Below are positions 1,037-24,568 of a DNA stretch of 64,000 nt, piece by piece (position 1 is the stretch's first letter; each line of letters opens with the position of its first letter). The notes under the pieces were generated by a model that made no database searches, had not been told where the DNA came from, and saw only the letters and a list, made by a program, of their open reading frames with translations. The stretch is taken from positions 1,376,001 to 1,440,000 of the forward strand of contig CAWGTN010000002.1 in NCBI GenBank assembly GCA_963825525.1, written 5' to 3'. The stretch is from an uncultured Chloroflexia bacterium (GTDB lineage: Bacteria > Chloroflexota > Limnocylindria > QHBO01). The translations under genes and the position numbers were made by a program.

Positions 1037-1072
1037 GGTCCCGATGTCACCGGGGCGGCGCACCGCGCCCTG

Positions 1073-1136
1073 CTCGATAGATCGAGCCGGATTCACGGGA
1101 GACGTGGATCCGGCTCACTTCCCTCGATCCATCGAG
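1073..1136. repeat. Two-core (half) CGA-N4-TCG array
   Basis: CTCGATAGATCGAG 1073-1086 and CTCGATCCATCGAG 1123-1136, 50 bp apart, with an internal hairpin GAGCCGGATTCAC/GTGGATCCGGCTC. Confidence 0.7.
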
Positions 1137-1163
1137 CCGCCCGATCGACCGGGACGCTGACCC

Positions 1164-4981: not shown

Positions 4982-5019
4982 TCGGCCCGGTGGTTCCGCG
5001 CGCGATCGTGCGTGGCCGT

Positions 5020-5194
5020 CGATAGATCGCGGGAAATACGCGCGGAGCGCCCACTACGCGCGGAAGCTTCGATATATCGAGCGGCTTCGCGCGTGAGGTG
5101 CGCGGGGGCGTGACCTTCACGAGCGGGACCCATCGATAAATCGAACAAAGCGCACGCAGATCGTCGGCTGCGTGCAGTTCCCGCCGATCAATCG
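5020..5194. repeat. Four-core CGA-N4-TCG array (family 1)
   Basis: Cores at 5020, 5070, 5134, 5185 (spacing 50/64/51). Confidence 0.85.
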
Positions 5195-5376
5195 AGAGAT
5201 CGGCGGAACAACCCCGACGAGGTGCCATCCCCGCAGCCCAGGTTGGCCGATGTGGTGCACCCACGCACTCATCTCGCCGGTTGGAGCGACCCATCAAGCG
5301 GCAGACGGGGTAGGATTTGATTCCCTCACCGGCCCGCCGGAGCGTGGCCCAATCCCCTGGCAAGGAGATTTCCTCA

Positions 5377-7185
5377 GTGACCCGATCCCCCCGTCTTCGA
5401 CGTCTCGCGGCGCTCGGGACTGCGATGGCCATGATCATGACCATGGCCGTACCCGCTGCCCTCGCGAAGAATCCGAAGCCCCCGATCGACATCCAGATCC
5501 TGGGACTCAACGACTTCCACGGTCAGCTCGAAGCCGTTCCTGCGACCTCCACCTCCGGCGCCCGCATCGGCGCGCTCCAGGGAACGTTCCCCAACCAGAC
5601 CTGCATTCCCGGCGGGACGCCGAACTGCATTCCGGCCGGTGGCGTCGAGTACCTCGCGACCCACGTGGACCAGCTTCGTGCCACGAACCCGAACACGGTG
5701 TTCGTCTCGGCCGGTGACCTGATCGGCGCGACGCCGCTGCTGTCCGCGCTCTTCCACGACGAGCCCAGCATCGAGGCCATGAACCTCATGGGCCTCGACT
5801 ACAACGGCGTGGGCAACCACGAGTTCGACGAGGGCATCTCCGAGCTGCTGCGCGTGGCCTATGGCGACGAGAGCGCCAAGGGATACACCCCGGCGCGAGC
5901 GGATGGCTGCCATCCGGTTGACGGCTGCGGCGACGGCGACGGCTACGCCGGCGCGAACTTCCCCTTCCTGGCGGCCAACGTCGTCTACAAGGCCAGTGGC
6001 AAGACCATCTTCCCGCCGTACGCCGTCCACAACTTCCCCGGTGGCGTGAAGGTCGCGTTCGTGGGTATGACCCTCGAGGGGACGCCGCTGATCGTCTCAC
6101 CCGACGGCATCTCGTCCGTGAACTTCCTCGATGAGGCCGAGTCGGTCAACGCGCTCGTCCCGCATCTTCAGCGACGCGGCGTCGAGGCCATCGTGGTCCT
6201 GCTTCACGAGGGCGGCAGCGTGGCCGCGTCCGGCAACGGAGCCGGAAGCGTCAGCACCATCAACAGCTGCACGAACCCGACCGGCGCAATCCCGGAGATC
6301 GTGCCGATGATGGATGACGCCATCGACATCGTGATCACCGGCCACACGAACTGGGCCGTGAACTGCCTCATCGACGGCAAGGTGGTGACCGGTGCTGCGT
6401 CGCAGGGTCGCCTGATCACCGACATCGACGCCAGCATCGACCGCAAGAGCGGCGACTTCGTGCCGGGCTCGATCACCGTCAACAACCGGATCGTCACCCG
6501 AGACGTGGCTCCGGCTCCCGCGCTCACCAACCTGATCGCGGAGTACAACGTCGTCGCTGCGCCGATCGCGAACGTCGTCGTTGGCGAGACCACGGCACCG
6601 TTGGACCGAACGACGGCTCCCGGCGGCGACTCGTCTCTCGGACGCCTGATTGCCGATGCACAGCTGGCATCGGCGCAGGCTGCCGGCACCGGCTCGCAGT
6701 TCGCGCTCATGAATCCGGGTGGCATCCGCGCCAACCTGGATGCGGGTGACATCACCCACGGCGAGGCGTTCAGCGTTCAGCCGTTCAGCAACATCCTCAC
6801 CACCATGACGTTGACCGGTGCGCAGATCGACACCGTGCTCGAGCAGCAGTTCACTGTGAACAGCGGATCGAGCATCGGGAATGCTCGCACCACCATCCTC
6901 CAGGTGTCCGATGGCTTCACCTACACGTGGGACGCATCGGCACCCGGCGGCAGCAAGGTGGATCCGAGCTCGATCAAGCTCAACGGTGTCACGCTGAACC
7001 CGGCATCCTCGTACACGTTCACCGTGAACAACTTCCTTGCCACCGGTGGCGATGACTTCCCGGCACTCACGCTGGGAACGAATCTCATCACCGGCGCGGA
7101 CGACCTGGTTGCCCTCGAGGCGTACCTAACGGCGAACGACCCGTACACGCCGATCGCGACGTCGAGGATCACCCGGCTGAACTGA
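5377..7185 (+). CDS. Secreted bifunctional metallophosphatase / 5'-nucleotidase
   Basis: Signal peptide, NDFHG, AGD, GNHEFD, GHT, NPGGIR motifs; AAGGAG upstream of GTG 5377. Confidence 0.93.
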   Translation: MTRSPRLRRLAALGTAMAMIMTMAVPAALAKNPKPPIDIQILGLNDFHGQLEAVPATSTSGARIGALQGTFPNQTCIPGGTPNCIPAGGVEYLATHVDQLRATNPNTVFVSAGDLIGATPLLSALFHDEPSIEAMNLMGLDYNGVGNHEFDEGISELLRVAYGDESAKGYTPARADGCHPVDGCGDGDGYAGANFPFLAANVVYKASGKTIFPPYAVHNFPGGVKVAFVGMTLEGTPLIVSPDGISSVNFLDEAESVNALVPHLQRRGVEAIVVLLHEGGSVAASGNGAGSVSTINSCTNPTGAIPEIVPMMDDAIDIVITGHTNWAVNCLIDGKVVTGAASQGRLITDIDASIDRKSGDFVPGSITVNNRIVTRDVAPAPALTNLIAEYNVVAAPIANVVVGETTAPLDRTTAPGGDSSLGRLIADAQLASAQAAGTGSQFALMNPGGIRANLDAGDITHGEAFSVQPFSNILTTMTLTGAQIDTVLEQQFTVNSGSSIGNARTTILQVSDGFTYTWDASAPGGSKVDPSSIKLNGVTLNPASSYTFTVNNFLATGGDDFPALTLGTNLITGADDLVALEAYLTANDPYTPIATSRITRLN

Positions 7186-7205
7186 CAACCGTCAGTCATC
7201 ACGTG

Positions 7206-7234
7206 AAGGGCCGGCCCACAGGGGCCGGCCCTTT
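7206..7234 (+). terminator. Intrinsic terminator hairpin
   Basis: AAGGGCCGGCCC-ACAG-GGGCCGGCCCTTT after the nucleotidase stop. Confidence 0.65.
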
Positions 7235-7277
7235 GCACGTCCGTCGCCGGTCGGGCCGGGCCGCGGTTCCGGCCCAT

Positions 7278-7454
7278 CGATTTGTCGAGTGGAATGCCGC
7301 GGGAACCCTCCAGCTGAGTGCTGAATCCCCGATCTATCGAGTCATCGTGAGCGTGAGGGGCCCGTGGACGTGCTGGTTACGCTCAGGGTCTGCCGATATA
7401 TCGAGGGATCGACACGCAGATCATCGGCTGCGTGAAAATCCCCGCGATATATCG
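7278..7454. repeat. Four-core CGA-N4-TCG array (family 1)
   Basis: Cores at 7278, 7330, 7394, 7445 (52/64/51); CACGCAGATC(G/A)TCGGCTGCGTG shared with the 5020 array. Confidence 0.85.
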
Positions 7455-7489
7455 AAAAGCCGCGAGAGAGCACCGACCACGCGGCCGCC

Positions 7490-18939: not shown

Positions 18940-19194
18940 GTGGGACTGATTCTCGACCTGGCGGTCGCGGCCCTCGCGCTGCTCGTCATCGCTTCGCTGG
19001 CCATGCTGGCCTGGACGCTCGGCATCAGTGCCACGAGGGCGACCCGCGAACGGCGGCGGCAGGTCGAGGAGGATCGCCGATCCATCGCGCGGACGGAAGA
19101 ACGCGTTCGGTCCGCCGCCCGACGAACGTCGGCCAAGCTGGCTGAGCTCGCGGCGCGAACAACACCGACACCTGGAGAGCGACCCGACGCATGA
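18940..19194 (+). CDS. Small single-TM protein
   Basis: Hydrophobic N-terminus then coiled region; TACTCT box before GTG; overlaps next gene ATGA. Confidence 0.55.
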   Translation: MGLILDLAVAALALLVIASLAMLAWTLGISATRATRERRRQVEEDRRSIARTEERVRSAARRTSAKLAELAARTTPTPGERPDA

Positions 19195-19499
19195 CGAAGA
19201 GCAGCCAGACGCCGAAACCTGAGGATCGCGCCGAGCGCGGATACCGAGGGGCACTCCCCGCGCAGGATGACCACCTCGCCAAGCCGTGGATTCTGACCGT
19301 GGCCGCCATCTTCCTGCTGGTGCTTCTCCTGTCCCTCGTGGGAATTCCGTCCTCCCTGATCCCCGATCCGACACCGGTGCCTCTGCCCTCGACCCCCGCT
19401 TCCAGCTCGGTCGAGCCCTCGGCTTCGGCTTCGGGGTCGGTGTCTGCTTCGCCTTCCGCTTCGGCTTCGGCTTCGGCTTCGGCCAGTCCTTCGCCGTAG
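19191..19499 (+). CDS. Small membrane protein with Ser/Ala/Pro-rich tail
   Basis: GGAGAG RBS, one TM helix, GGCTTC tandem repeats encoding SASASA. Confidence 0.65.
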   Translation: MTKSSQTPKPEDRAERGYRGALPAQDDHLAKPWILTVAAIFLLVLLLSLVGIPSSLIPDPTPVPLPSTPASSSVEPSASASGSVSASPSASASASASASPSP

Positions 19500-19512
19500 G
19501 GTCGGCGCGAGC

Positions 19513-19687
19513 CGATGTTTCGGCTGCCGCGTGGCCCTGAAGCCGTCGCCGGCGCCCCTGCGCCGATATTTCAGGCGCCCGTCCTCGTGAGACGCGCCCC
19601 GGGGCGCCCTCCACGCTCACCACCGACCGAAATATCGGCGGCACGGCGCCTGAGGAACCCGGAGGCCACCGCCCGGCCGAAATATCG
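19513..19687. repeat. Four-core array (family 2, GCCGAWATWTCGGC)
   Basis: Cores at 19513, 19564, 19628, 19678 (51/64/50); about 140 bp is a near-identical direct repeat of the 20509 array. Confidence 0.9.
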
Positions 19688-19728
19688 GCGTCGGGCGTCT
19701 TGGCACTCCGGGGACCGACCCGGCCTGC

Positions 19729-20427
19729 TCAGCCCACGGTCTGCGGCATTCTCCGCGGACGGATCCACAGCAATCCGTCGGCTCCCAGTGGCCGACCGCC
19801 TCTGATGGCGCCCAGCACCTCTCGTGATGTCCCGGGGAGTGCGGTCCCCACGAGCCGAGCGTGGGGCTCAAGGGCTGCGCGATTCCGCCTCGTGTCCTCG
19901 ACGGCCATGACCAGACGCACCGGCCGTTCGTGGCGCGCGGCGAGGTAGTCTCGCTTCTGCACGTTGCGCCGATACTGCGCCTGGAAGTCGACCAGCCTTC
20001 GGTCGATCTCGATGTCGATGATCTCGAGCGGGCCGTAGAGCACGACATCGCATGCCTCCCCGTGCTCGCCGGCGGGCAACTCGAGCGCCACGGTCCAATG
20101 CTGGGTGGCCAAGCGTCGGATGTGTTCCGCAACGGTGAGCTGACCGCTGTCGCGGAGGCCGATCGGGCGGGCGCGGTAGGCGCGCAGAACGATGTCGATC
20201 CCCACGGCTTGCCCCACCGCGCAGATCGTGGAGATGCTGACGCCGGGCTCGCCAAACTCCACGCGGCGCTCGGTGTCGGGCGAGACACCGGCTCTCCGGC
20301 TCGCGGTCACGCGAGTCATTGCCTGCTCCACCCGAGCGAGACGAATCTCCTGGCCGATCGACCCCGCCTGCGCGCGAGCCCGGCGTGCCCCGGCCCTCCG
20401 CTGGCTGGGGCGTGTGACGTGAGCCAT
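19729..20427 (-). CDS. XRE-HTH protein with putative PD-(D/E)XK-like C-terminal domain (paralog 1)
   Basis: IRLAR..AM....ASRRAGVS....RVEFG HTH; LRD.GQL, E-x10-D-x12-E-x-D, DFQAQYRR, VEDTRRN, DGLLW. Confidence 0.8.
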   Translation of the reverse strand: MAHVTRPSQRRAGARRARAQAGSIGQEIRLARVEQAMTRVTASRRAGVSPDTERRVEFGEPGVSISTICAVGQAVGIDIVLRAYRARPIGLRDSGQLTVAEHIRRLATQHWTVALELPAGEHGEACDVVLYGPLEIIDIEIDRRLVDFQAQYRRNVQKRDYLAARHERPVRLVMAVEDTRRNRAALEPHARLVGTALPGTSREVLGAIRGGRPLGADGLLWIRPRRMPQTVG

Positions 20428-20508
20428 TCGGTGATCTTGCCGATGGGGACGTATCCGCGGCTTACCGGCGGGTTGTTCGGAATGGGCTTTCGGCCGTTTC
20501 CGGCGCGC

Positions 20509-20682
20509 CGATATCTCGGCCGCTTCGTGGCCTGGGCTTGATTCCGGCGCCCCTGCGCCGATATTTCATGCGCCGGTCCTCGTGAGAGGAGCCCCGGGGC
20601 GCCCTCCACGCTCACCACCGACCGAAATATCGGCGGCACGGCGCCTGAGGAACGCTCGGGCCACCCCCCGGCCGATATATCG
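20509..20682. repeat. Four-core array (family 2)
   Basis: Cores at 20509, 20559, 20623, 20673 (50/64/50). Confidence 0.9.
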
Positions 20683-20803
20683 GCCCGCGGCGAAGCGCCT
20701 AACCGTCACAGTGTTGTACGGAATCCGGACAGGTGCCATACTCACGCGGCTGCTCATCCCTGCGGGTTGACGAGCGCACCCACCACTGGAGGGCGGAATT
20801 CAG

Positions 20804-22290
20804 TTGGCCGAGACTCAGCGATCCGTGCTTGTCGTCGACGATGACGCCGATATCCGCAAGCTGCTCGAGGACCTCCTGACCGAGGAGGGTTACGCGGTCC
20901 GCCTGGCACCCGACCGGCGCCGAGGCGGCCGAACAGATCACCGCGGACCTCCCGGACCTCGTGCTGATGGACGTCAAGCTCCCCGACCAGGACGGCATCA
21001 CCCTGCTTCGGCAGCTGAAGCGCGAGCACAGCGAGCTCGAGGTCATCGTGATGACCGCGTTCGGCGGCAGCTCGAGCGCCATCAAGGCCATGGAGCACGG
21101 GCGCGTATGACTACGTCACGAAGCCCTTCGAGATCGACGACCTGCTGGCCACCTTCAAGCGCGTGTTCGAGCACGCCGACATGAGCAACGAGGTCAGCGC
21201 CCTTCGCCTCGAGCTCGGCAAGCGCGAAGCCGAGCGCGAGCGGATCGTCGGCAGCAGCAAGCCGATGCTCGAGGTCTTCAAGCTCATCGGCAAGGTGGCC
21301 CCGTCGGACGCAACCGTCCTGATCACCGGGGAGTCGGGCACCGGCAAGGAGCTCATCGCCGAGGCGCTGCATCGGGCCAGCAAGCGCAACCCGCATCCGC
21401 TCGTCAAGGTGAGCTGCGCCGCGCTGCCGGAGTCGCTGCTGGAGACCGAGCTGTTCGGCCACGAGAAGGGCTCGTTCACCGGCGCCATGACCATGCGCAA
21501 GGGCCGATTCGAGAGCGCCAACAAGGGCACGATCTTCCTCGACGAGATCGGCGAGATGACGCTGGGCACCCAGACCAAGCTGCTGCGCATCCTCCAGGAG
21601 CGCGAGTTCGAGCGCATCGGCTCCAACACGCCGATCAAGATCGACATTCGCGTCATCACGGCCACGAACCGCAACCTCGCCGATGAGGTCAAGAACGGCA
21701 AGTTCCGCGAGGACCTCTACTACCGGCTGAACGTCATCCACATCCACATGCCGCCGCTGCGCGAGCGCAAGGACGACATTCCGCTGCTGGTCGAGCACTT
21801 CCTGGTGAAGTTCCGTCACGCGGCGGGTGCCATCCCCACGGCCATCAGCGAGGAGGCGCTCGAGCGGCTGGTCGACCACGACTGGCCCGGCAACGTGCGC
21901 GAGCTCGAGAACGCGATCGAGCGGGCCGTGGTGCTGTCGCGGGGCAACCCGATCACGGTTGAGCACCTGCCGTTCAGCGAGGATCGCGGGGCCCCGGAGC
22001 GTGCCACGTTCGCGGAACGGCGAACCAAGCTCGAGGGTGACGAGGCCGCGCTCTCCGGTCGGCGCGACGCCCTCGACGCGGACGAGGCCGACGCCGATGC
22101 GCGGGACGCCGCCGACACCGAATCGAACGGCGATGGTGCGTTCAAGGCGCAGGTGTCGGCGCTCGAGCGACAGCTGATCAAGGAGGCCCTGGATCGGGCC
22201 GGCGGGAACCGCTCGAAGGCCGCCGAAGACCTCGGGATCTATCGGCGCCTCCTGTACGCCAAGATCAAGGAATACGGGCTGGGCGAGTAG
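20804..22290 (+). CDS. NtrC/AtoC-family sigma54-type response regulator (frameshifted near 20915 and 21100)
   Basis: Receiver VLVVDDD/LMDVKLP/KPF, GESGTGKE, ELFGHEKGSFTGA, WPGNVREL, Fis HTH. Confidence 0.9.
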
Positions 22291-22351
22291 TAGTCCGGCG
22301 TTTTCGGGCTCGGGTCCGGGGCTCGGGTCCGGGGTCGGGGCTCGGCGTCTT

Positions 22352-22526
22352 CGATATATCGCGGGAAATGCACAGGAACGGTCCGCCGCCGCGCCGTTCC
22401 CTCGATACTTCGAGCGCCTCAACGCTGGAAGGGCTCGCGGGCGCGCACTTTACGCTCCGCAGCACTCGATAGATCGCGGGTTCCGCCCTCGAACACGCCG
22501 CCAAGTGACAATCCCGCGATCTATCG
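22352..22526. repeat. Four-core array (family 1)
   Basis: Cores at 22352, 22403, 22467, 22517 (51/64/50); perfect inverted repeat CTCGATAGATCGCGGG / CCCGCGATCTATCGAG. Confidence 0.88.
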
Positions 22527-22582
22527 AGCTGAGCGGAACCTGGTAAGCGGCCGAAAATTGGCGCCCGCCACACTTCCAAGGC

Positions 22583-23284
22583 ATGAGATCCCGTAGCAGC
22601 CGACGAAGAGCGCGCGTGCAGAGCGAACGCATCGGCGCAGAGATCACGCTCGCGCGGACGACGTTGGCGATGTCGGCGGAGCGGGTTGCCGCGAGAGCCG
22701 GCGTATCGTCGTCGACGGTGTGGCGGATCGAGCGCGGAGAACCGGGCCTGACGCTCACCTCCATTTCCGCCGTGGCCGAGGCCGTCGGACTCGACCTCGT
22801 GCTCCGGGTGTACCCCGGAACCCCGCCTTCACTGAGGGACACGGGACAGCTCGAGCTCGCTGAGCTCATCGTCACCCGCGCCGCGCCGACTTGGCAGCCG
22901 ACGATCGAGCTGCTGGTCGGTCAGCACGGTGAGTCCATCGACCTTGCGCTGTTCGGCTCACTCGAGGTTTGGGCCGTGGAGATCGAGCGCATGGCAACGG
23001 ACTTCCAGGCTCAGTATCGAAGGGCCGATCAGAAGCGAACGACGTTGGCGGCGGGGCATCAGCGCCAGACGCGTCTCGTGATGGTGGTCGAGGACTCGCG
23101 TCAGAATCGGCGGGTGATGGGAGCGCACCGGGATCTGATCGGACGAGCGCTTCCGGCGGGCTCGCGCGAGATCTTCCAGGCACTGGAACGCGGCGTGCCG
23201 CTGGGCCGCGACGGGCTGCTGTGGGTTCGCCGGCCTCGCAGGCCTCGCAGGGCTGGGCCAATCCCAGCGGGGTCTACTCGATAG
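22583..23284 (+). CDS. XRE-HTH protein with putative PD-(D/E)XK-like domain (paralog 2)
   Basis: Colinear with 19729..20427: AGVSSSTVWRIERG, LRDTGQL, IDLAL..VEIER, DFQAQYRR, DGLLW. Confidence 0.82.
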   Translation: MRSRSSRRRARVQSERIGAEITLARTTLAMSAERVAARAGVSSSTVWRIERGEPGLTLTSISAVAEAVGLDLVLRVYPGTPPSLRDTGQLELAELIVTRAAPTWQPTIELLVGQHGESIDLALFGSLEVWAVEIERMATDFQAQYRRADQKRTTLAAGHQRQTRLVMVVEDSRQNRRVMGAHRDLIGRALPAGSREIFQALERGVPLGRDGLLWVRRPRRPRRAGPIPAGSTR

Positions 23285-23453
23285 ATCGAGTGCAAGTGCA
23301 CGTGAGGGCCCGTCTGAGTGCCGTTCCCGCGATATATCGACTGTCGCTACGCTTAAGCCGCACTCGGACGGGCGCTGCACGCTCCCAGCCCTCCGATATA
23401 TCGAAGGAACGCCGCGCGGATCGGCCTCTATGGGAACTGCCCGCGATTTATCG
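23279..23453. repeat. Four-core array (family 1)
   Basis: Cores at 23279, 23330, 23394, 23444 (51/64/50); the first core contains the TAG stop of paralog 2. Confidence 0.88.
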
Positions 23454-23539
23454 AGAGAATCGGGCCCAGCACAGCCCCGGTGGTATCCTTCTTGCCACTC
23501 CAACAGGCACGAAACACCACGAAGGGCGGAAATTTCCCC

Positions 23540-23848
23540 ATGTTCAGCCGCGTTCGAATCGCGATCAGATTCTTCTTCGTCGGGCTGGCCGTCGGAGTGC
23601 TCCTGGCCCCCCGCAGCGGCGAGGCAACTCGCCGAATGGTGCGTGAGAAGGCCGACCGCATCCTCAACGACGTCCTGGATGCTGCCTCGCTCGGCACCGT
23701 CGACACCGGAGGCGAGGGTATCGACGAAGAGGCCGATGCACCACGCCGCGCCACGCGCTCCGCGAACGGTGGCCGCACCAAGAGCCGTGCCGCCAGCACC
23801 AGCGCGAGCACCGGCGCAGGCACGAGCACCAGCGCCCCGGCGAGCTGA
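23540..23848 (+). CDS. YtxH-like protein
   Basis: FFVGLAVGVLLAPRSGEATR motif. Confidence 0.75.
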   Translation: MFSRVRIAIRFFFVGLAVGVLLAPRSGEATRRMVREKADRILNDVLDAASLGTVDTGGEGIDEEADAPRRATRSANGGRTKSRAASTSASTGAGTSTSAPAS

Positions 23849-23876
23849 GCCACCAACCTCAGACGTGATCTGACCG

Positions 23877-24568
23877 ATGCGCTGGCCGCGTTCCCCGCGG
23901 CCTCGCAATTCGGAGGAACGTGCCGCCCGCGATCGGGAGCGGATGGTGTCGGATCAGCTCGTGGCGCCGCGGGATCACCGACCCGGAGGTGCTTGCCGCC
24001 TTCGAGCGGGTTGAGCGCCATCGGTTCGTGGACGACGGCGACCCCTACGGGGACCACGCCCTTCCGCTCGGCTCCGGCCAGACCATCTCCCAGCCGTACG
24101 TCGTCGCGCTGATGACCGCCGCGGCACGACCCGCAACGGGTTGGGCCGATGCCCCGGTCCTCGAGATCGGGACCGGCTCCGGGTACCAGGCGGCCATCCT
24201 GGCGCGAGCTCGGGGCCAGGGTCGTCAGCATCGAGCGTCACGCGGACCTGGCGGACTCGGCGCGCCGGCACCTGGCGGAGACGGGCCACGGCGAACGTGT
24301 CGCGGTCATGGTCGGTGACGGCAGCCAGGGATGGGTGACGGGCGCGCCGTATCGGGCCATTTTGGTCACCGCCGGTGGCCCTGCGGTGCCACCGCCACTG
24401 CTCGAGCAGCTTGATGAGATGGGCGGGCGGCTCGTCATGCCCGTCGGCGACCGCGAGCACCAGGTGCTGACGCTGGTCGAGCGGAACGGCGAGGAGTTCA
24501 CGACCCGAGACCTTGGCGCGGTCGTGTTCGTCCCCCTCATCGGCGAGCATGGTCACTCGGCGAGATAG
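23877..24568 (+). CDS. pcm: Protein-L-isoaspartate O-methyltransferase (frameshifted)
   Basis: [35 protein letters not shown] across frames. Confidence 0.9.

Follow-up and report, generated by a model that had tools for sequence, protein, structure and literature searches.

Paralogous genes for XRE-HTH proteins with a predicted nuclease fold are bracketed by matching four-core palindrome arrays in a Limnocylindria genome: a candidate repeat-protein partnership

The DNA analyzed here (the window; 64 kb) belongs to G000, a genome of the class Limnocylindria (Chloroflexota; 2.58 Mb in 4 contigs, 68.7% G+C, 92% complete). It carries two paralogous genes, each encoding a protein with an N-terminal XRE-type helix-turn-helix (HTH) domain and a C-terminal domain with a predicted restriction-endonuclease-like fold. 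Both genes are bracketed by arrays of four palindromic cores (A1 and A2 around paralog 1, A3 and A4 around paralog 2; Table 1), and the array-gene-array unit is referred to below as a cassette. A strict pattern search (core CGA-N4-TC[G/A]; gaps of 40-41, 54 and 40 bp) matched the window only at positions 19513, 20509, 22352 and 23279, and none of 200 dinucleotide-preserving simulations of the window contained a match (mean 0, maximum 0). The bracketing of the two paralogs, first proposed in a sequence-only reading of this DNA, is thereby borne out exactly.

The arrays are approximately 185 bp long and contain four palindromic sites of 12-14 bp, with core starts 50-51, 64 and 50 bp apart. These distances correspond to about 5, 6 and 5 helical turns, which would place the sites on roughly one face of the DNA. 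The cores of A1 and A2 are of the GCCGAWATWTCGGC type (subfamily 1), and those of A3 and A4 of the CTCGATAKATCGAG or (C)TCGATAKATCGAG type (subfamily 2). An imperfect core 2 had been attributed to the second family, but it is in fact found in the arrays of paralog 1, where it reads CGATATTTCA (positions 19564 and 20559). The two families had also been said to share geometry and minimal core but not linkers. The first part of this statement holds and the second does not: A1-A4 are mutually alignable over approximately 185 bp (mean column identity of 67%) and have several motifs in common outside the cores (TTCAC...GTG, CGTGA...TCACGC and GCAC...GTGAA), so their linkers are not unrelated. Each palindromic site is accompanied by conserved CAC/GTG motifs at a distance of about 16-20 bp. 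The two arrays of a cassette are usually on the same strand (direct), and the stop codon of paralog 2 falls within core 1 of A4.

Short G+C-rich tandem repeats adjoin the arrays at several sites (GGGCTCGGGTCCGGG units at positions 22296-22340 of the window; units of 7-25 bp at loci L051, L062 and L077 of the related genome G002). Being directly beside the arrays, they blur the boundaries of insertions.

Table 1. Arrays, HTH-nuclease genes and promoter-like motifs identified in the window
Feature	Position	Strand	Remarks
Half array	1072..1140	+	model positions 6-76 only
Solo array, subfamily 2	5012..5197	-	upstream of 5'-nucleotidase gene
Solo array, subfamily 2	7270..7457	-	downstream of the same 5'-nucleotidase gene
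Array A1	19510..19695	+	downstream of paralog 1; cores 19513/19564/19628/19678; subfamily 1
Paralog 1, 232 aa	19729..20427	-	XRE-HTH + predicted PD-(D/E)XK fold; recognition-helix motif GVSPDTERRVE
GGTAAGC-N-GATAC motif, promoter-like	20449..20468	-	between A2 and start codon of paralog 1; same motif in related loci
Array A2	20506..20690	+	upstream of paralog 1; cores 20509/20559/20623/20673; subfamily 1
Array A3	22349..22534	+	upstream of paralog 2; cores 22352/22403/22467/22517; subfamily 2
GGTAAGCG-N-AAAATT motif, promoter-like	22543..22562	+	between A3 and start codon of paralog 2; compare related loci
Paralog 2, 233 aa	22583..23284	+	XRE-HTH (residues 4-78) + predicted PD-(D/E)XK fold (residues 88-218)
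Array A4	23276..23461	+	downstream of paralog 2; cores 23279/23330/23394/23444; subfamily 2

The two bracketed genes are not the only places where arrays occur; the arrays constitute a dispersed intergenic repeat family with a unit of about 185 bp. A profile hidden Markov model (HMM) built from A1-A4 detected (nhmmer) 31 array loci in G000, of which three lie elsewhere in the window (Table 1). Seven loci are of the paralog-1 type and 24 of the paralog-2 type, and the two subfamilies match the flanks of the two paralogs. The arrays often occupy nearly the whole intergenic spacer, with 17 lying between tandem, 8 between convergent and 6 between divergent genes (genome background: 1340, 326 and 325, respectively). 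Apart from the two paralogs, no recurring gene family was found among the neighbors of the 31 loci. The median pairwise identity of the arrays is 0.57; it is the DNA between the cores that has drifted to this level. Conservation is maintained in the cores, in their spacing and in the CAC/GTG motifs. With an identity of 0.82, A1 and A2 are the most similar of all array pairs in the array alignment of this genome.

Two further observations concern the dispersed copies. An ordinary 5'-nucleotidase gene of the window (positions 5317-7185; Pfam 5_nucleotid_C) is bracketed by two subfamily-2 arrays (region 5012-7457), and bracketing is therefore not exclusive to the HTH-nuclease genes. The arrays at C1:17381-17569 and C2:1466503-1466694 of G000 are nearly identical, their immediate flanks included, which suggests a duplicated segment rather than two independent insertions.

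The products of the two paralogs are 51% identical over 203 amino acids (aa; E 1e-67). The N-terminal part of paralog 2 matches the Pfam families HTH_31 (31.2 bits; cut-off 27) and HTH_3 (26.4 bits; cut-off 23). The corresponding match of paralog 1 (22 bits) is under the gathering cut-off, and its HTH fold is supported by the 51% identity to paralog 2. Searches of both proteins against Pfam, NCBIfam, PADLOC and PHROGs returned matches to the N-terminal XRE HTH only (weak ones in the case of PADLOC), leaving the C-terminal domain uncovered. The latter was assessed by structure prediction, using an AlphaFold2 model built on an alignment of 50 homologs (pLDDT 93.3; pTM 0.74). In this model, residues 4-78 resemble the HTH domains of HipB and of restriction-modification C proteins (Z 9.6-10.9), and residues 88-218 resemble the C-terminal domain of the NucS nuclease (2vld_B; Z 11.0, root-mean-square deviation 2.8, 101 aligned residues), AF1548 (1y88; Z 9.8) and an XisH-like protein (2okf; Z 9.1). 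As modeled, the C-terminal domain has a PD-(D/E)XK fold with an alpha-beta-beta-beta-alpha-beta core. Residues E109, D120, E133, Q142 and K151 are invariant in the 50-sequence alignment and R136 is nearly so; these six, together with E or D at position 135, are kept in 18 of the 19 proteins encoded at the best loci of related genomes described below. D120 is placed on strand 2, E133-x-(E/D)135-R136 on strand 3 and K151 on the next helix.

A homodimer formed through the HTH and the strand that follows it was also predicted (score of 0.58, compared to 0.01 for the best control). This score is reached by 20 of 30 solved homo-pairs and by 1 of 23 single chains; the prediction runs agree in at least 94% of contacts, with a partner pLDDT of at least 82. 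Since HipB-type dimers are among the solved structures, this result may merely reflect the likeness to HipB.

The protein family comprises 182 clusters (50% identity) at E <= 1e-10. Protein names given by the source and one contig match place it in Chloroflexota, Candidatus Limnocylindria, and the Atlas clusters nearest to the C-terminal domain consist of unnamed Chloroflexota proteins. No relatives were found on viral contigs, and PADLOC and PHROGs match the HTH only; on these two grounds, a phage or defense origin was rejected.

G000 encodes three paralogs in all. The third (30% identical; C2:2005640-2006640) is bracketed by a different repeat, with a unit of about 45 bp containing CCAATTCGGCCA; further copies of this repeat occur at C2:2001034, C2:2004424 and a few other places. 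More members of the HTH-nuclease family may thus possess private repeats.

The distribution of genes and arrays was examined in a sample of 61 related genomes; for the arrays, 36 other genomes of the same genus and 24 genomes of other genera of the class were searched. Close homologs (E <= 1e-40) are present in 17 of the 61, all of the same genus. Of the 19 best-matching loci outside G000, all within the genus, 14 had flanking arrays detected by the HMM: on both sides at eight (L004, L005, L006, L007, L008, L009, L014 and L018; 13 of the 19 have DNA on both sides) and, at six (L003, L010, L012, L013, L019 and L021), on the only side for which there is DNA. The counts include L007 and L010, which come from the unpublished genomes G034 and G006, respectively; two G006 arrays were also used in the array alignment and model, and none of the conclusions depends solely on these two genomes. 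Inspection by eye of the five HMM-negative loci (L011, L015, L016, L017 and L020) revealed degenerate or different palindrome arrays. L016 (genome G026), for example, encodes a homolog with 46% identity that is bracketed by tandem units of about 95 bp (1200-1412 and 2180-2510) with ACCGATGAATCGGT-type cores that do not follow the 50/64/50 spacing. In 63 metagenome loci, arrays were found upstream of the gene in 32 of 42 cases, downstream in 43 of 53 and on both sides in 24 of 34; the loci without arrays mostly encode more distant homologs. Flanking arrays are therefore a regular companion of the gene beyond G000, as they should be if the two belong together.

For the search of other genomes, a sequence-only array model built from 44 arrays was applied; it scores matches per strand, and the resulting counts are lower bounds. 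Arrays were detected in 31 of the 36 other genomes of the genus, with copy numbers between 0 and at least 75 (the latter in G002), and in the other genera only weak matches were obtained, in 3 of 24 genomes (E >= 3e-4). All 17 genomes with a close homolog contain arrays. Conversely, none of the five array-free genomes (G017, G020, G021, G032 and G033) has an intact close homolog; in G021 the gene is split.

Comparison of the loci revealed that the type of core follows the recognition helix of the protein encoded between the arrays. Proteins with a GVSPDT..RVE helix are accompanied by GCCGA..TCGGC cores, GVSWST..RVE by CTCGA..TCGAG, GVARSTW.R by GCCCGA..TCGGGC, and GVA(L/P)(G/D)TQRR by ACCGA..TCGGT. 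A telling case is provided by G002, in which a protein of the paralog-2 clade has an altered helix (GVAWETVARSE): all 8 cores that flank its gene are of the CTCGC-N4-GCGAG type, and the same type is present in 41 of 47 distinct dispersed arrays sampled from the 75 or more of this genome. The second paralog of G002 is bracketed by a second array type, spaced 51/63/51. In the array alignment as a whole, the strongest covariation is that of the core-flanking bases, which change together in all four cores. Array type tracks the recognition helix of the protein. The CAC/GTG motifs are unchanged across core types, and from this constancy we infer a division of labor, in which the variable HTH would read the variable cores and a conserved part of the protein, plausibly the nuclease domain, would read or cut the CAC/GTG motifs 16-20 bp away.

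The two cassettes of the window are part of a conserved gene order: MFS gene, cassette 1, NtrC-like activator gene, cassette 2, YtxH-like gene and the gene of a protein-L-isoaspartate methyltransferase (PCMT). The MFS, NtrC-like and YtxH-like neighbors recur in most of the genus loci and in 33 of the 63 metagenome loci, and this shared synteny indicates that the gene is mainly inherited vertically at one place. Cassettes located outside the syntenic locus (L008, L013 and L016) are likewise flanked by arrays.

Empty orthologous sites were found both for whole cassettes and for solo arrays. The locus is present in G017 and G020, where its flanks are intact and both cassettes are missing; 45 nt separate the regulator stop codon of G017 from the conserved 5' part of the YtxH-like gene. 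In G010, a single solo array directly follows the regulator stop codon. The cassette of G026, with its own array type, is found between two convergent genes whose G000 counterparts are separated by 13 bp. At 7 intergenic sites of G002, the arrays form doublets or triplets, and the corresponding gaps in G000 measure only about 10-160 bp. In five of nine cassettes (that of A1/A2 and those of L005, L006, L008 and L018), the two flanking arrays are by a clear margin each other's closest relatives; the identity reaches 0.89 in L008. Such likeness fits either duplication of one array when the cassette was formed or gene conversion.

Between the upstream array and the start codon, all cassettes inspected (L001, L011, L015, L016 and L017 among them) contain a GGTAAGCG-N4-6-(G)GTAAT / GATAAG motif, whatever the array type. 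It may represent the promoter of the gene or a site for another protein. The genes beside the paralogs are those of the conserved order given above, with the arrays between them, and they include no toxin kinase and no restriction or methylase genes.

Two neighboring genes appear damaged. The gene of the NtrC-like sigma-54 activator (20804-22290), located between the cassettes, is read in three frames, with breaks of the receiver domain near 20900 and 21102. Each break corresponds to an apparent extra base, and one DNA contig of sequencing run X1 is one base shorter at 21102; the gene is either a pseudogene or affected by indel errors of the assembly. The PCMT gene (23920-24568) is split into overlapping open reading frames (23920-24318 and 24149-24568), of which the second matches positions 99-208 only of the Pfam profile, a second hint of such errors. 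The possibility that the arrays are upstream activator sites of the NtrC-like protein was rejected: a genome scan for -24/-12 sites (at most one mismatch) yielded 127 sigma-54-like sites, every one of them more than 250 bp away from the nearest of the 31 arrays, and G017 keeps the regulator without arrays.

Taken together, these results lead us to lean towards a protein that recognizes cores of its own type and causes, or keeps up, the spread of the arrays, in a manner analogous to REPIN-RAYT systems. The sequence-only reading had already inferred a REP/RAYT-like partnership with a different protein family, and the comparative evidence supports it: two outcomes named there as refuting, homologs without flanking arrays and an array family that does not follow the protein clade, did not come about. 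The anatomy of the cassettes, their association across genomes, their presence/absence polymorphism, the predicted fold and the core-helix co-variation are what the data show, and binding, cleavage and mobilization are inferred from them. Probably, a dimeric XRE HTH protein would bind the palindromic cores of its own array type, with a specificity that co-evolves with the recognition helix. The nuclease domains might then cut at or near the bound arrays, and recombinational repair between arrays would copy them, a step that we hold to be possible, if short of probable. As the gene lies between two arrays, the whole cassette would be copied too. The expected outcome would be (i) dispersed solo arrays, (ii) tandem doublets and triplets, (iii) gain of cassettes and (iv) their loss to a solo array. 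More tentative still is the proposal that the protein is a novel kind of DNA-mobilizing enzyme, whose rapidly evolving HTH would read four phased palindromes and which would cut at the conserved CAC/GTG motifs, located at a fixed distance, with repair copying both arrays and gene.

Several observations weigh against this view. No terminal inverted repeats or target-site duplications were found at the filled-versus-empty junctions of six sites, where the flanks are only 70-88% identical and contain short GC-rich tandem repeats. The canonical Lys of the (D/E)xK motif is absent and the motif reads E-x-(E/D)-R, so that catalysis by the nuclease-fold domain is not assured; an E-x-E variant of the active site occurs in BamHI. 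Judging by their median identity, the arrays of G000 are old and give no sign of current activity. Because most cassettes occupy one syntenic locus and kin are not independent, much of the evidence of flanking and tracking is inherited rather than independent. Fourteen genomes of the genus contain arrays and lack an intact close homolog. One of them is G010 (9 contigs, 86% complete), in which at least 22 arrays were counted and even the family profile did not detect a nuclease domain. Counts of arrays without a gene are weak evidence either way, as the metagenome-assembled genomes are 56-87% complete and repeat-flanked genes assemble poorly. Of 20 sequencing runs with matching words, 2 are RNA runs (with 0.05-0.06 of the words), and their contigs cover only the 20.7-22.3 kb region, i.e. 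the conserved AAA+ part of the NtrC-like regulator gene, probably from other organisms. Finally, the whole array folds better than its shuffles (z -3.15 as DNA, -3.24 as RNA), an excess to be expected from the mutual complementarity of the four cores.

The protein could instead be a plain autoregulated transcription factor whose nuclease fold serves only to oligomerize or to sense a ligand. In that case, the arrays beside the gene would act as operators, perhaps by looping it, and the dispersed ones would mark its regulon. The closeness of the HTH to HipB and controller-protein repressors, the predicted dimer, the palindromic and helically phased sites, their intergenic location, the promoter-like motif just downstream of the upstream array and the missing Lys would all suit such a regulator. 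However, 8 of the 31 arrays are located in convergent spacers, which contain no promoter, the genes next to arrays have no common family or theme, and every HTH-nuclease gene has an array at its 3' end too. Neither would a regulon account readily for doublets and triplets in spacers that measure about 10-160 bp in a sister genome, for copy numbers that range from 0 to at least 75 within one genus, or for the invariance of the acidic active-site residues. We therefore regard plain autoregulation as rather unlikely.

It may also be supposed that the arrays are MITE-like (miniature inverted-repeat transposable element) or recombination-prone sequences spread by a host process or another enzyme, with the HTH-nuclease gene as a separate selfish or guardian gene that targets or lives among them. 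It could, for instance, be a restriction-like gene homing into solo arrays as landing pads, or a host nuclease that limits the arrays. This would agree with the many arrays of G010 in the absence of a homolog, with the solo array at its cassette site, with the tandem clustering (arrays attract arrays) and with the presence or absence of the cassette as a unit. Nevertheless, G000 lacks an HUH/Y1 transposase, no other gene recurs beside the arrays, and the five array-free genomes are without an intact close homolog. Moreover, the co-variation of helix and core, and the match between dispersed arrays and the flanks of the resident gene in G000 and G002, are what would be expected if the protein acted on all arrays. 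A separate mover is for these reasons quite improbable.

An earlier suggestion that array-derived RNAs are involved found no support. Rfam 15 gave a single chance match in the region 19000-24000 of the window (E 0.64; 20.6 bits versus a gathering threshold of 41.5), RNAalifold yielded essentially no consensus structure (-0.44 kcal/mol, the one pairing being that of core 2 and core 3), and the self-complementarity of the three spacers between the cores is at chance level compared to shuffles (mean z -0.42, -0.84 and -0.40; n=44). On these grounds, a structured RNA or riboregulator was rejected as the principal explanation. That the arrays are structured-RNA genes or leaders, or single-strand hairpins as in REPs, on which the protein acts is hardly credible: the folding excess and the mutual pairing of all four cores would fit it, but the results just given do not, the strongest covariation is that of shared core-flanking bases and not of helices, the element scores on both strands, and XRE HTH domains bind duplex DNA. 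A cruciform or single-strand form of the array may occur, but is not needed by the binding and spread proposed here.

REPIN-RAYT systems consist of REP doublets and REP-associated tyrosine transposases (Bertels & Rainey). The HTH-nuclease system is similar to them in logic and lacks their defining feature, as its enzyme is not an HUH transposase and its repeat does not look like a hairpin doublet. The likeness, judged against a study of RAYT genes (10.1101/2021.07.10.451892), is as follows: (i) a low-copy enzyme gene is flanked by its own repeats, of which tens of copies occur in intergenic DNA; (ii) each enzyme clade has its own repeat type, and repeats and enzyme may be missing together, a parallel to which G010 and other incomplete genomes with arrays and no intact gene run counter; and (iii) the gene is inherited vertically at the same extragenic place across species, as that study states for RAYTs. 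The differences lie in the enzyme (XRE-HTH with a predicted PD-(D/E)XK fold instead of an HUH/Y1 transposase), in the repeat (a 185-bp four-site array with duplex phasing instead of a doublet of hairpins of about 20 bp, and no supported single-strand hairpin) and in the bracketing of the gene by same-strand arrays, with gain or loss of the whole cassette. A classical RAYT or IS200 element was rejected as a candidate: Y1_Tnp (PF01797) has no match in G000 (92% complete), and control genomes do match.

With insertion sequences and MITEs the system shares an autonomous unit (array-gene-array) that exists beside many gene-less copies, as well as filled and empty sites between related genomes. It differs from them in that its junctions, read at 70-88% flank identity, showed neither terminal inverted repeats nor target duplications, the "ends" being complete 185-bp repeats that are usually direct, and in that Pfam and NCBIfam detect no DDE, HUH or serine/tyrosine recombinase domain on the proteins. 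The NucS/EndoMS, AF1548 and XisH-like nucleases (2vld, 5gke, 1y88 and 2okf) resemble residues 88-218 in fold; they have only 7-16% identity, another N-terminal domain and a (D/E)-x-K motif in place of E-x-(E/D)-R. HipB antitoxins and C proteins of restriction-modification systems are comparable in their HTH fold and in dimerization through the segment after the HTH (predicted here), whereas the genes described in this study have no adjacent HipA-like toxin or restriction-modification genes and encode an extra C-terminal nuclease fold. Type IIS enzymes and homing endonucleases likewise have separate recognition and nuclease modules, motifs at a fixed distance, and genes that spread into or beside their target; in the present case there is no methylase, and the gene, instead of splitting its target, has a copy of it on either side. 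A search of the open-access literature (titles and beginnings of abstracts) found no published description of an array and HTH-nuclease system, which is not proof that it is unpublished.

To our knowledge, REPIN-RAYT is the textbook and nearly sole case of a repeat population kept for a long time in bacterial lineages by a domesticated single-copy enzyme. In an uncultured soil class of Chloroflexota, the same logic seems to have been put together from unrelated components, namely an XRE DNA-binding domain, a nuclease fold of the restriction type and four phased palindromes in a 185-bp array. Provided that the protein acts on the arrays, the system would (i) establish a new family of enzymes that move or copy DNA, (ii) offer a series, made by nature, of recognition helices with their matching DNA sites, from which HTH specificity could be studied or engineered, and (iii) account for the poor assembly of these genes and their surroundings from metagenomes, in which many homologs are found on contigs of 1-2 kb. 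Should the protein prove to be a DNA-mobilizing enzyme, vertically inherited repeat populations with a single-copy replicator enzyme would have been invented twice and independently, in this case in a form that operates on duplex DNA with a restriction-enzyme fold.

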